This document shows positions 47,553 through 63,002 of a stretch of DNA of 64,000 bases, piece after piece. How positions within the stretch are numbered: position 1 is the first letter of the stretch; every line of letters begins with the position of its first letter. The DNA is from Promethearchaeota archaeon (GTDB lineage Archaea > Asgardarchaeota > Heimdallarchaeia > Hodarchaeales > Hodarchaeaceae): assembly GCA_048938105.1 (NCBI GenBank), contig JBHLMN010000004.1, positions 64,001-128,000 of the forward strand, given 5' to 3'. The notes under the pieces are model-generated. The model was not told the DNA's origin, made no database searches, and saw only the letters and a program-made list of their open reading frames with translations. A program made the position numbers and the translations under genes.

Positions 47553-48830
47553 TTATTTCATTAATTGTTCAGCTATATCATCCTTAGCTTCAGCTATCTC
47601 TTTTTGGATCTCTAGATTAGTATTTCTTTCATTTGTCATTTGTTTGGTTTTTTCATCAATCCTTTTAATGATATTTAAATCAAATTGATTGAGCCTAGTC
47701 TTCTCTTTAGTTGAATGATTCAGATTAGAGAAGTCACCTTTAACACTATCCCCACGCTCTGCTGTTTTGATTTCATTTATTCGCTCCTGGTCCACACTAG
47801 CAAGTCTATCAGCTGTGACTAAATTAGATGTTTCTAAGGGATTTTCACCTAAAAATACTTCAAGTTGGCGTTCATTATACTTTCTTAATTGATGGATTTC
47901 CTCTGGGGAAAGATCAGGTATCTGTGGATCATATGAGGAGTCTGGTAGTAAATCTTCCATGATTTTCGACTCGTCCATTACATTGTGTCTTTTTTTAGAT
48001 TCAGTTTCCGTCCTTGGAGAAGATGGAATTGTATTTTGGGAATTATTGTTTTGATTAATTTTTAGATGAGGAATGACATCCCTATTCTCAACCTTCTTAG
48101 AGGTGTAAGTTGGGGGTTGTGGAAATGTGTTATTTGAGGGAGAAGGAGGAGGGGATTGAGAAGATCTATCGAGAAAAGCACCATGATAATCATGGGTTCC
48201 GTTCTCTTCTCGTTGGAGATCAGAGGATAATAATGGAGTAAAAACCAATCCAGGAATGATTTTCTCAATCGCATTTTGAAAGTCCAAGCTACGTTCACGA
48301 ATATTAAAATGAAAGTCTTTTAGTTGATTCAGTGAGGATAATAACTGAGTATAATTACACTCAGGGTAATCTAATGTAAGATTTAAGATAGTATTACCAG
48401 AATCTTCAATGATTCGGAATTGATGTCCTTGAAGATTTTTCAAGACGGAAAGACGGAAGTCTTGAGGTTTCCTATCAACCTGAAAATTTATCAACACGGT
48501 TGTTAGGTTCTCTTTTTGGGAGTATAAGATAATAGCTTCTGGAATATCATCCAATTGAAAACGATCTTGGGTTGTTGGGAGATTGGTAAAATGAAAGGTC
48601 TCCAACTGGTGCTTAATATCTACATTATCCAAAATAAGGCCGAGAAAATATCCAACAGACCCCAGTACTAATACCATGAGAACACTTGCATCCGTAACAT
48701 AATAAAACAGGCATCCACAGAGAAAACCGATAATTGCGGTTAGCACACTGCGCTCTAACATTAATATTTCATCCATTATATGATATTTTGTTCCAGAGTA
48801 TTTATACTCAAAATCAGAGCTACTGGTCAT
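47553..48830 (-). CDS. Membrane-anchored protein: 2 N-terminal TMs, globular domain, disordered Pro/Ser-rich and coiled C-terminus
   Basis: Hydropathy judged by eye. The start may be ATG 48776, 30 nt after the promoter-motif TATA. Confidence 0.75.
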   Translation of the reverse strand: MTSSSDFEYKYSGTKYHIMDEILMLERSVLTAIIGFLCGCLFYYVTDASVLMVLVLGSVGYFLGLILDNVDIKHQLETFHFTNLPTTQDRFQLDDIPEAIILYSQKENLTTVLINFQVDRKPQDFRLSVLKNLQGHQFRIIEDSGNTILNLTLDYPECNYTQLLSSLNQLKDFHFNIRERSLDFQNAIEKIIPGLVFTPLLSSDLQREENGTHDYHGAFLDRSSQSPPPSPSNNTFPQPPTYTSKKVENRDVIPHLKINQNNNSQNTIPSSPRTETESKKRHNVMDESKIMEDLLPDSSYDPQIPDLSPEEIHQLRKYNERQLEVFLGENPLETSNLVTADRLASVDQERINEIKTAERGDSVKGDFSNLNHSTKEKTRLNQFDLNIIKRIDEKTKQMTNERNTNLEIQKEIAEAKDDIAEQLMK

Positions 48831-48838
48831 AGTGGCTA

Positions 48839-51628
48839 CTAGTGGAGAGTTTGAGCGAACTGATTGTAATCATCGCCTAAAGGGATCTCCATTCCTTCAA
48901 GAATGTACATGAGAAGAGACCGTGCTCCAAATTTATCCAATTTGGTGTTATTATGACTACAGCGAGGTAGAAATGTGCATTTCGGACATCCTTGAGGATC
49001 TTTACATTCACAAGCCAAAATATCATAAGCTCTGGTGAATAGCTCGGAGAGATGATCCAAAAGCATAGCACAGACTCCTGAACCATTAGCTTGGTCAAAC
49101 AGTAAAACATAGCCTTGGGGAATTAAGGCTAATCCTCCAATTTCACTGAGCTGCCCCCCAATAAAGGGCAGACTAGCGTGGAGAAGGACATGAACCAAGG
49201 TATGCAACGCAGCTCTAAAAGTACTATGATCAGAACCTATAATATCTGTAAAAAGAGTTGGAACCTGAAAAAGGAGGCCTTTGGAATGGGAGGAATAATA
49301 GAGAGGATCACGAAGTCTATTCATGGAAGTACCATTCGGAGACTCTAAAACATAGCCAAAAACCGTCTGAAGGACCTTTGTTTCAACTGATACGACTTCT
49401 AGTCCAAAGACATGATGATGAGTATGGAGGGTCAAGATCTCTGGTTTTAGCGAGGAGAGAGGATAAGTATTTCCCCACACACTCTTTGGCTTGATAAGCT
49501 CTGCTACCCCTCGTATTCCGTTAAAATAAAAACTAATCACTTGATATCGTGTGCCCCCAGAATAATAAAACGCCCCAGGATATAGTTCTAACATAGCAAT
49601 AGGCATCACACGTTTTCCGATTTTTCTTCCCCCACGTATTTTTATCACCACCTCGTGGTTCCTCCCTCGAATCGAATATCTCCGTGCTTGTTCTTGTCCT
49701 TCTTGCGTTGGCAGGAGAATGGATTCATCTACCTGATTCAGAAGATTTTCTGCTACTAATCTACTAAGGATGGGAGCATATTCAGGAAACTCACTCACAT
49801 CAATGGGATGATCGAGGGAGGCACATAGTAACTGGTTTTCTGTGACGTTAGGATTGTCGGGGTCAAAAAATACTTCTTCTATGTCTTGATAATACCGCTT
49901 GGGGTATCGATAATAGTAGTTAGAAATTGGATCTTCGCTATTTAGATGAATGATTGCTACTGCTTCTTGGCCCTTCCGACCTGCCCTTCCGATTCTTTGC
50001 ATAGCACGATTTACTGCAATAGGAGGCGTAATAACAATGTCTAAATCTCCAATATCGATTCCCAATTCAAATGTGGGTGTAGCTACCAATAAATCGATTA
50101 TACTGTCTTTGAAATCAGTTTCAACCTGTTCTCGGATTTTCTTGTCTAGTCCTGCCCGATGGATACCAACTCTTTTTGCAGTCCCTCCCAGCTTCTGATA
50201 TAAGATTTCGGCATTGCGATGCGAGTCTTGAAATACCAACGTCTTACCATGATATTTGATGCTGTTGACAAGACTTGTTACACTATCCAAAGTCGACATT
50301 CCTTCAAAGGGAGCTACCATTAAGAAGTGTAAACGGCCCCGTCGTCCATTCTGACATTCGATTACTGTGATAGGCCGATCGAGCAATTTTGAGGCAAACG
50401 ATTGCGCATTGGCAACTGTAGCTGAGGCTCCAATAAATTGTAGTTTTGTTTGTATTATTCGTTCTAAACGGCGCAATATGAAGTACATGTTTGAGCCAAA
50501 AGTTCCAGTATACGAATGGATTTCATCTAAAATGACGATTTTAAGGCCTGCGAGTAAATCCTGGAAATAACTGCTATTTTTCCCGATTCCTAAGTGATAA
50601 TGCAAAATATCAGGGTTAGTAATCAAAATTTCAGGGGGATCAGCATAGATTTTTTTCCGCCAATAGTGGCTAGTGTCTCCATCAAAGACTCACACTGACA
50701 AGCCTAGAAGGGATGCGAAATCCTCAATTTTCCGAAGTTGATCTTTAGCCAAGGCTTTCATCGGATAGATCAAAAGTAATTGTACTCCACAGTCCTTATA
50801 CTCACGAATCTTGAGTAGTGTTGGAAGAAGGAACGCCTCGGTCTTACCATTCCCTGTGGGGGCAACAATGCACACATCTTGATCCTTTTGAATCATGGTT
50901 ATCGCTTCTTCTTGAAATTGGAAAAAGTGAGTGATTTCCCGTTTCTTTAACGCTTTAACAAGATTAGGGTCGTTTAAAATGTCAATTCTCTTTCCTATCT
51001 CCCCAGGTTGGTTTTCAAACAGACGATAATCAACTATTTGATGCTGTGCAAATTGGATTATTTTTTGGATAGGTGTTGGGAGATCCTTAATGGGAATGTC
51101 AAACCGATTATGGAATTCAGTCAGTGTGATGACACTTTTCGGAGCCTTACTTTGGATAGTCAGTCCATCCTGAAGACCTAGCTCCTGATGAGATGGCAAT
51201 TTTTTCAATTTTCCTGAACTCGCAAGGCGAAGTTCTGTTGCCTTTTGTAGGCAAGCATTTCCCCCCGTCAGGGAATAATATTTTTGTAAACAGAACTCTC
51301 CTTTCCGAACGTCTCTCTGCTTAAAATAGAGTGAAGATAACTGCTTCCATGTTTCCCTATGCGTGTTATTTAATTGTAATATTCGGCCAAACGCCTTCTT
51401 GGCATCACTAATTTGTTTGAATTTCTGAAAGTGATTAGCGATTTCCGTGAGTAACTCAACAGACGGGGTGGGATTCTCTGAAGCTACAATGGCTCTAAAC
51501 TCTGCTAAGATGTCTTCAAGATCACGAAATTCCTGATAATCCTCTATAGCGGAACGATAGCGTGTCCACAAGTTTTTTTTGTTGTCCCCATGAATAGTCA
51601 TGATTTCATCAATGATGATTATTAACAT
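48839..51628 (-). pseudogene. TPR + Hrq1/YprA-type DEAH helicase with DUF1998 Zn domain, interrupted by one in-frame TGA (50690-50692)
   Basis: APTGNGKT, then LGLSV*VFDGDT..ILITNPD in the same frame, then DEIH, SAT, HRAG, ELGIDIG, QRIGRAGR and CEC...GCPKC....RC. Confidence 0.85.
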
Positions 51629-51715
51629 TCACTTATGAATGCGAAAATACTTTGAACCATAATACTGTGTAACAACCTTTATTTTAACCAAGTTATACCT
51701 TAGAGCGATTCAATG

Positions 51716-61795: not shown

Positions 61796-62818
61796 TTATT
61801 TGGAATTAAAGTCTCGGACACCCTCGCTGGTAATTGCGAACTCTACTTTCCCATCAGGAAATTCAGGGCTTTTTGTTAATGAGGCAGTTCGTTTGGTTGC
61901 TTTCCCCTTTCGGATGAATATCCGAGTAGTAACCGTATGACCTACAATATTGCCTCCAACAGGCTTATTTGGATCCCCAAAAAATATCGCGTCAGGTTTG
62001 GCGGATACTTGGTTCGTCACGAGACCAATACAATTCATTATTTCAGCCTGTTTAGCAATAAACGCTAAATGTCTCCCAATCAGTTGTTGTCGTTCTGCCA
62101 GTGTTCCACGTCCCACGAACTCACTTCTGAAATGTGACATGAGGGAGTCTACAATTATCAGACCAACGTTTGGAACCATAGTAAGTGCCTCTTCGGTGAG
62201 TGCCATTTGGTGTTCACTATTGTAAGCTCTACCAACCGTAATTCGTGAAAGTACGGTGTCTGGATCTATATCTAATGCCTAAGCTATTTGTACTATTCGA
62301 TTAAAGCGGAATATTCCTTCTGAGTCGATCCAAATCACATCTCGGTCGAGGTATTTAACGCAATTAACTGCCAATTGGTGGGCAATCTGGGTCTTTCCAC
62401 AGCCATTCTCACCAGCGATTTCCGTGACACTTCCCGTTTCAAATCCTCCCCCTATGAGTTCATTGAACGTTTTTGATCCTGTCGTTAATTTTATCCGTGT
62501 TTTTGCTGCTTCCTCGTAATCTGTCCCTTTTTTTAATCCAAGGTCAAACTGTGCTCTTGCTTCACGGATTAGATGAGCTGCAGTTTTCTCCGCAATTCCC
62601 GAAATTTCAGTTAATTGAGCCCGTGTTGCTAGAGCTATCGCTTCTTTGCTTCCATAACCCGCAGTTTCTAGTCGTTGTCTTGTCGTGGGGCCAACGCCTG
62701 TTATTGTTTCTAAGAATGGTTTCTCTGAGGTTGTGTCCTTTTTCTTAACTTTCTTTGTCCTTTTCTCTTCAATTGGCTCAGAACTAATTCCTTCGTCTTT
62801 TGTTTCGACTTTTGCCAT
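61796..62818 (-). pseudogene. radA: RadA/Rad51-family recombinase paralog interrupted by one in-frame TAG (62279-62281)
   Basis: HhH N-terminus, GENGCGKTQ, IDSE, then RIVQIA*ALDIDPDTVLSRITVGRAYNSEHQ in frame into DSLMSHFRSEFVGRGTLAERQQ, TNQV and PVGGNIVGH. Confidence 0.88.
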
Positions 62819-62891
62819 CGTTTTTCACTTTATTCTTTTTTCTAGCTATATTGTTGTAAACCTTTGATCTGATTATGATTTAGCTCCCTGC

Positions 62892-63002
62892 CTTTTTATA
62901 CTCAAAATCACCAATTTTTCGAATTTCTAGTACAAAAATATAATTCTCATTCTTACCTTATATATTCAAAATCGATGGGAGAATAGATTTCTAGTATAAA
63001 AG
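62892..63002. promoter_or_regulatory. Duplicated bidirectional promoter: four copies of the island motif in two inverted pairs 64 bp apart
   Basis: Minus strand 62909-62892 and 62973-62957; plus strand 62922-62938 and 62986-63002. Confidence 0.65.

Follow-up and report, generated by a model that had tools for sequence, protein, structure and literature searches.

A T-rich box standing directly in front of the TATA element marks the promoters of a cluster of DNA repair, recombination, and surface genes in a genome of the order Hodarchaeales (Asgardarchaeota). The window, meaning the whole stretch of DNA analysed here, is 64,000 nucleotides in length and corresponds to C27:64001-128000 of a 5.85-Mb assembly (GCA_048938105.1) with 35% G+C. 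The box has the consensus RWTTTY, is mostly GATTTY in this genome, and is located exactly 3 nucleotides before a TATAWAAR sequence. The two parts make up a regulon-specific core-promoter module that is present, specific to a small set of genes, conserved, and positioned at promoters. The roughly ten promoters marked by the box probably form one co-regulated set, as judged from the element they share. No published description of the box was found in the literature searched.

Motif Copies in the Window

An earlier note on this sequence listed eight copies of the motif between 48800 and 63002, and all eight are present in the window sequence with the same coordinates and orientations. Three additional degenerate copies were found upstream of p88-Hef, p265, and the MrfA-like gene. 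The copies and the gene cluster that they serve are as follows.

48800-48815, minus strand: GATTTTGAGTATAAAT, box and TATA of the p425 promoter; the ATG at 48776 is 23 nucleotides past the motif, and 6 of 9 relatives keep the box at their p425 ortholog.
About 51633-51650, minus strand: degenerate copy (ATTTTC..TTCATAA) upstream of the MrfA/Hrq1-like helicase gene; similar weak copies occur in the same place in relatives, and the evidence is weak.
54365-54380, minus strand: AATCTTGAATATAAAA, promoter of p867 (HerA/VirB4-like), found by pattern scan and as repeat family D2.
55552-55567, minus strand: degenerate GATTTCTGGTCGAAAA, 33 nucleotides upstream of p265, with the box intact and the TATA weak; paired in inverted orientation (I8) with the promoter of "big", the gene for the giant surface protein.
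56771-56786, minus strand: GATTTTTAGTATAAAA, promoter of the p92-p295-p265 unit, found by pattern scan.
57526-57541, minus strand: CATTTTGATTATATAA, p172 promoter, 30 nucleotides before the ATG; a distance of 28 to 33 nucleotides is retained in 8 of 9 relatives.
57575-57590, plus strand: degenerate ACTTTCGAGTTCTTAA, promoter of p88 and the Hef-like gene, divergent from p172; resembles the conserved p88 promoters of relatives.
62894-62909, minus strand: GATTTTGAGTATAAAA, proximal radA-XPD promoter; rank 1 of 3747 upstream regions with a matrix built from relatives only.
62922-62937, plus strand: AATTTCTAGTACAAAA, distal promoter facing big, found by pattern scan.
62958-62973, minus strand: GATTTTGAATATATAA, distal radA promoter, separated by 64 bp from its proximal counterpart, found by pattern scan.
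62986-63001, plus strand: GATTTCTAGTATAAAA, proximal promoter of big (63057 onward), conserved in relatives.
47553-63998, no strand assigned: box-served gene cluster, from Pfam/NCBIfam matches and synteny in 15 relatives.

The distances from TATA to start codon are 30 (p425, ATG 48776), 52, 38, 37, 82, and 62 nucleotides, in agreement with the range of 30 to 82 nucleotides given in the earlier note.

With up to two mismatches allowed, GATTTYKARTATAAA has 12 matches in the window. Dinucleotide shuffles of the window gave 5.0 ± 2.0 matches, and none of the 100 shuffles reached 12. Four of the matches lie in the left 47 kb, where the motif had been reported as unseen before genes; every one of them is within a coding open reading frame (ORF) and none is in a promoter. 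In the whole genome there are seven exact matches, four of which lie between 48.8 and 63.0 kb of the window, and 36 matches with at most one mismatch, five of which lie in the same interval. In an unbiased repeat search of the region, the two leading direct-repeat families, D1 and D2, both consisted of the motif. The sequence flanking the copies is unrelated from one copy to the next, and a Tandem Repeats Finder (TRF) scan showed no tandem array. The repeated unit is therefore a short motif and not a duplicated segment.

A further good match, GTTATTGAGTATAAA, is located at 59535-59549 on the minus strand, antisense within the Hef-like coding region. It is probably due to chance, or it may be an antisense promoter.

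Promoter Layout

The layout of the module was read from 52 orthologous promoters aligned on the motif. The invariant core TTTY occupies positions 2 to 5, followed by A/R at positions 7 and 8 and TATAWAA at positions 9 to 15. Position 16, a column outside the selection of sites, is a purine in 52 of 52 promoters. An AAT is present 11 to 12 nucleotides past the motif in 31 of the 52, and in 94% a purine follows the TATA at a distance of 22 to 23 nucleotides. With transcription starting at this purine, the box would lie at -38 to -33, the TATA at -29 to -22, and an AATY at -11 to -8.

In archaeal promoters the location of the box (about -38 to -33) normally holds a purine-rich B recognition element (BRE). 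No A-rich BRE is present here. Its position is taken by TTTY, with T at 98 to 100% of two positions. The box is kept even where the TATA is degenerate (TTCTTAA, TCGAAAA, or TACAAAA), as at p88, p265, and the distal big copy.

The start codon of p425 is so close to the motif (23 nucleotides) that its transcript is probably leaderless. The start codons of p425 and p172 are 17 to 33 nucleotides past the motif in most relatives, so these transcripts would have short leaders or none.

Specificity Within the Genome

A matrix built from the eight window sites was used to scan 11 upstream regions of the cluster and about 3736 others. A score of at least 16 was reached by 5 of the 11 cluster regions and by 3 of the roughly 3736 regions elsewhere. 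Outside the cluster, forward and reverse match counts are equal at every threshold. The motif accordingly does not occur at similar frequency at unrelated promoters or genome-wide, the outcome that the earlier note had named as speaking against it.

Generic TATA words in the genome lack the GATTT flank and are, if anything, slightly enriched in A upstream. A generic promoter element is ruled out by these flank profiles and by the forward/reverse control. Start-anchored profiles, k-mer enrichment, and tRNA upstream regions were used to derive the canonical BRE of this genome. Apart from a Shine-Dalgarno signal they yielded a few GAAA-TATA examples and nothing more, so that an A-rich standard BRE in this genome is backed by weak evidence here together with general knowledge. 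The word TTTAGCT does not act as a promoter signal in this genome.

The other strong intergenic matches of the genome motif scan fall exactly at a pair of LuxE/LuxC-like operons, one at C28:110 kb and one at C27:318 kb. The regulon is therefore not limited to 48800-63002, as had been proposed, and reaches these two operons as well. Three tandem boxes are present at C28:110304-110441 and two at C27:318128-318203; they are about 60 bp apart with diverged spacers. The two operons are paralogous, with first genes 88% identical. Weaker matches elsewhere (a dehydrogenase, a glycosidase, and small ORFs) look like noise.

Conservation Across Relatives

Of 20 genomes belonging to the genus, 15 have an ortholog of the cluster radA, with 64 to 89% identity. 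In most of these 15 relatives the radA/big region carries the box, even where radA identity drops to 65%, so the conservation upstream of orthologs called for in the earlier note extends across the genus. In the orthologous radA/big intergenic regions the back-to-back pair of boxes is retained with an inter-box spacer of 8 to 20 nucleotides, while the remainder has diverged.

With a relaxed matrix and a threshold of 23.5, which 0.85% of 2484 background upstream regions reach, the box was scored at radA in 13 of 15 relatives, big in 9 of 14, p172 in 5 of 9, p88 in 6 of 12, and p425 in 6 of 9. None of the operon-internal genes XPD, Hef, and p867 reach 23.5 in the relatives. With a window-only matrix, which avoids circularity, a score of at least 12 was reached by 12 of the 19 orthologous promoters from six relatives, compared with a background rate of 0.5%. 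In the opposite direction, a matrix built from relatives only was used to rank 3747 upstream regions of this genome. The resulting ranks were 1 for radA, 2 for LuxE copy 2, 4 for p92, 9 for LuxE copy 1, 10 for p867, 12 for p172, and 19 for big. LuxE-like orthologs are boxed in nearly all relatives.

The orthologous sites are more degenerate than the window copies. When the relatives were scanned genome-wide with a strict pattern, enrichment was weak, with 4 to 12 matches versus 1 to 7 for the reversed control.

The radA paralog on contig C52, which has the best Rad51-family score, served as a control. It has no box, and a conserved block of its own is found in 8 orthologs. This block, GTGT..AGCYATT..TTTTTAAC, lies about 50 to 75 nucleotides upstream of the gene (locus C52:26299-30315). 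An Orc1/Cdc6 gene is located 2 kb from this paralog on the opposite strand.

The bidirectional radA/big promoter unit at 62894-63001 is doubled in this genome with a 64-bp period, and its spacers have fully diverged. The radA/big intergenic regions that were read in relatives have a single promoter unit.

Gene Content and Synteny

The cluster comprises p425, the MrfA-like helicase, p867, p265/p295/p92, p172, p88 with the Hef-like gene, the XPD-like gene, the radA paralog, and the start of the surface-protein gene. The radA gene is one of five Rad51-family genes in the genome, and close homologues of its product in public records are labelled Hodarchaeales or Heimdallarchaeota. The helicases behind the motif are XPD/Rad3-like, Hef-like, and MrfA/Hrq1-like with an MZB domain, as assigned by Pfam/NCBIfam. 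The nearest language-model neighbours of p867 (867 amino acids) are HerA/DUF87/VirB4-type ATPases, which is a lead only. A gene divergent from radA encodes a surface protein of 1604 amino acids that has Ig-like domains. No family match was obtained for several small or membrane proteins of the cluster.

The p88 gene (57637-57903) encodes a member of a conserved Cys/His-rich family of 76 to 118 amino acids. Residues C27, C30, C40, C62, and H65 are invariant in this family, whose signature is NSPLCQICE...LLNRR...SCSAHRNW. In every case p88 opens the Hef-like operon. As a candidate reader of the box, p88 was modelled with AlphaFold; the model had a confidence (pLDDT) of 46.6, which is unusable. 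A MarR/TrmB-type winged-helix gene at 46906-47469 on the minus strand lies directly downstream of p425. It is non-syntenic in relatives and is not itself boxed.

The cluster is inherited vertically and is syntenic in one Hodarchaeales genus. Around the radA orthologs, 15 relatives share an order in which big is divergent from radA-(p867)-XPD and Hef-p88 is divergent from p172, with p425 and MrfA also in place. The LuxE-like/LuxC-like operon is single-copy in the relatives and lies within or beside the cluster, near the MrfA-like gene. In this genome it is present in two copies elsewhere. As the operons are dispersed here yet still boxed, the motif travels with the genes.

The G+C content of the cluster is somewhat raised (0.38-0.43 versus about 0.34). 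Despite this, synteny in 15 relatives rules out an acquired island or mobile element, and the earlier term "island" is replaced by that of a vertically kept, syntenic cluster. The unrelated flanks of the motif copies and the missing TRF array speak in the same direction, against both a mobile element and a duplicated segment. A defence system was also considered and rejected, as PADLOC returned just generic helicase similarities (BrxH, DrmA, and type IV DinG) with no partner genes. Rfam gave no match to a known RNA family, and a related-locus search with p172 as the query gave no match.

Single in-frame stops are present in three of the boxed genes: a TAG at 62279-62281 in radA, a TGA at 50690-50692 in the MrfA-like gene, and a TGA in LuxE-like copy 2 (C27:316619-318049). 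In all relatives these positions are sense codons (E/K/Q in radA and K/R/E/S in MrfA). The stops could mean that the programme was recently inactivated in this lineage, or they could be population variants or base-call errors. A pyrrolysine reading of the radA TAG was rejected, as neither PylS nor PylD is found in the genome above the family cut-offs. The intron mode of aragorn calls a tRNA with a CUA anticodon ("tRNA-Pyl") in this genome, which has no genes for pyrrolysine synthesis or charging, and the call is probably false.

Possible Readers of the Box

Our tentative preference, which we hold at somewhat less than an even chance, is that a dedicated, sequence-specific factor other than a general TFB acts positively at the box. 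Such a factor would bind the T-rich box at the BRE position and help TBP and TFB to assemble. The boxed genes would then be turned on jointly, plausibly in response to DNA damage or for DNA exchange, with the module heading about ten units: the radA paralog, the XPD-, Hef-, and MrfA-like helicases, the HerA-like protein, small proteins, the LuxE/LuxC-like proteins, and the giant surface protein. The parts of this reading that we infer are the existence of the reader, the positive sign of its control, and the trigger. Positive control is favoured because the canonical BRE is replaced and not overlapped, because weak TATAs keep the box, and because the closest precedent, the ANTTTC element of the Sulfolobales, works in this way. 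The mixture of repair and recombination genes with membrane, surface, and LuxE/LuxC-like genes suggests a damage-response or DNA-exchange programme, comparable to the Ups/Ced part of the Sulfolobales regulon.

Several points weigh against a dedicated activator. No reader protein was identified. No TFB gene, Orc1/Cdc6 gene, or other radA paralog has a box upstream, so nothing points to a regulator that controls its own gene. The cluster and its immediate neighbourhood contain no conserved transcription factor. Archaeal activators usually bind upstream of the BRE and not on it. The box is asymmetric and lies inside the expected TBP/TFB footprint, which suits direct reading by a TFB equally well. 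Lastly, the motif columns of the 52-promoter alignment partly served to select the sites, and their information content is inflated for that reason.

The best-surviving alternative is that the box is a variant BRE read directly by a specialised TFB paralog, which we regard as unlikely but worth serious consideration. The box sits at the BRE position with an invariant 3-nucleotide spacing to the TATA, its asymmetry is that of a site for a monomeric TFB, and the purine directly after the TATA is conserved. The genome has four TFB genes and one TBP gene, and a regulon of a TFB paralog is known in Sulfolobus (TFB2, bioRxiv 10.64898/2026.09.06.749720). In that case, however, the BRE is near-standard and the spacing alone differed. 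No TFB gene is boxed here, and the number of TFB genes, which is 2 to 5 within the genus, does not track the box. Four relatives with two TFB genes (G009, G011, G015, and G003) carry the cluster radA-XPD, and G009 and G011 have the full cluster. The box is present in G009, G011, and G003 despite their having only two TFB genes, so no extra TFB paralog tracks the motif. The earlier note had proposed a regulon-defining element read by an alternative TFB or an activator, and a search for extra TFB paralogs. The small, specific gene set agrees with the proposal; retention of the box in relatives with two TFB genes weakens the part that concerns an extra paralog.

A somewhat more doubtful alternative is that the box is a repressor operator, which would block access of TFB and TBP in the manner of the SOS response and be released by a signal such as DNA damage. 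The site overlaps the BRE and TATA, which is the usual spot for archaeal repressors (PMC12993045). The gene set resembles one that is silent until needed, and several of the promoters have two to three copies. On the other side, no canonical A-rich BRE lies under or beside the box and some TATAs are degenerate with the box kept, so the core promoter would stay weak after derepression. The motif is also non-palindromic, unlike most sites of dimeric repressors, and there is no conserved repressor gene nearby, the MarR/TrmB-like gene at 46906-47469 being non-syntenic.

That the box has no dedicated reader at all appears improbable. Under this explanation the promoters would be kept by descent or by intrinsic properties of the DNA (the T-tract and the A-tract around the TATA), and expression would be constitutive. 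All of the box promoters come from one ancestral cluster, which makes shared promoter ancestry conceivable, and T and A tracts favour TBP-induced bending. Against this, at least six separate promoters across species keep G/A at position 0, Y at 5, and A/R at 7 and 8, while the proteins are 40 to 65% identical and the neighbouring bases are randomised; the spacers of the tandem copies have likewise fully diverged. Least probable is a chance or generic AT-rich intergenic feature: the genome is AT-rich and TATA-like words are common on both strands, but the shuffles, the genome-wide clustering, the forward/reverse control, the 0.85% background, and the cross-species ranking all reject it.

Comparison With Known Systems

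The closest analogue of the box appears to be the DNA-damage element ANTTTC of the Sulfolobales (within AATAGTTTCRGWDTACTCWS), which lies 23 to 55 nucleotides upstream of the ATG, is bound by Orc1-2, and is required for induction (PMC6061795). The box resembles this element, in line with the loose analogy drawn in the earlier note. Both are short T-rich words ending in TTTC or TTTY in the core-promoter region, and both mark a small regulon that mixes genes of DNA repair or DNA exchange with genes of surface structures. The copy at 62922 on the plus strand, AATTTC, is an exact match, and AATTTC is also found in many orthologous big promoters. The systems differ in that most copies here are GATTTY, the spacing to the next TA is off by one base, the box is locked to a clear TATA, and the host is an Asgard archaeon and not a member of the Thermoproteota. 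The 23 to 55 nucleotide interval fits p425, p92, and p172, while the other boxed genes have longer leaders. As counterparts of Orc1-2 there are only candidates: of the four Orc1/Cdc6 genes in the genome, one is of Orc1-1 type, and the type of the other three (C41:175.9 kb, C52:25.9 kb, and C52:457.4 kb) is undefined.

The radA paralog sso0777 of S. solfataricus is reported to have a damage-inducible promoter activated by Sta1 (PMC2175319). The two cases are alike in that the promoter under special regulation belongs to a radA paralog and not to the main recombinase. They differ in that Sta1 is a known activator, while the element described here is common to about ten promoters. The Sulfolobus TFB2 regulon resembles the present set in that a subset of promoters is set apart at the level of the BRE and TATA (bioRxiv 10.64898/2026.09.06.749720). 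There, the BRE is near-standard and the spacing is shifted; here, the sequence is non-canonical and the number of TFB genes does not track the box. The bacterial SOS box, bound by LexA, likewise defines a regulon by one short word before scattered repair genes. It is a palindromic operator for a dimeric repressor on a sigma-70 promoter, whereas the box described here is asymmetric and belongs to a TBP/TFB promoter.

Significance

To our knowledge, almost nothing is known of gene regulation in Asgard archaea, and Hodarchaeales are the closest known archaeal relatives of eukaryotes. The box is a sharply defined, phylogenetically footprinted cis-element with about ten promoter targets and a fixed geometry to the TATA. 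It can be used as bait for its reader in electrophoretic mobility shift assays, DNA affinity purification sequencing, or pull-downs with TFBs, Orc1/Cdc6 paralogs, or cell extract. It can also be used as a marker for following expression of the recombination and envelope programme in metatranscriptomes.

If the reader is a TFB, the box would be a clear case of divergence in BRE sequence used for promoter selection. If it is an Orc1/Cdc6 paralog, the damage-response logic of the Sulfolobales would extend to the sister lineage of eukaryotes. In its fullest form, which we consider quite unlikely as a whole, Hodarchaeales would have a damage or DNA-exchange programme in which a non-canonical box at the BRE position is read by a non-initiator Orc1/Cdc6 paralog, switching on a spare recombinase, FANCM/XPD/Hrq1-type helicases, aldehyde-handling LuxC/LuxE, and a giant adhesin. 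Were this true, damage signalling of the Orc1-2 type would be ancestral to both the TACK and the Asgard archaea, and by extension to the line from which eukaryotes arose.

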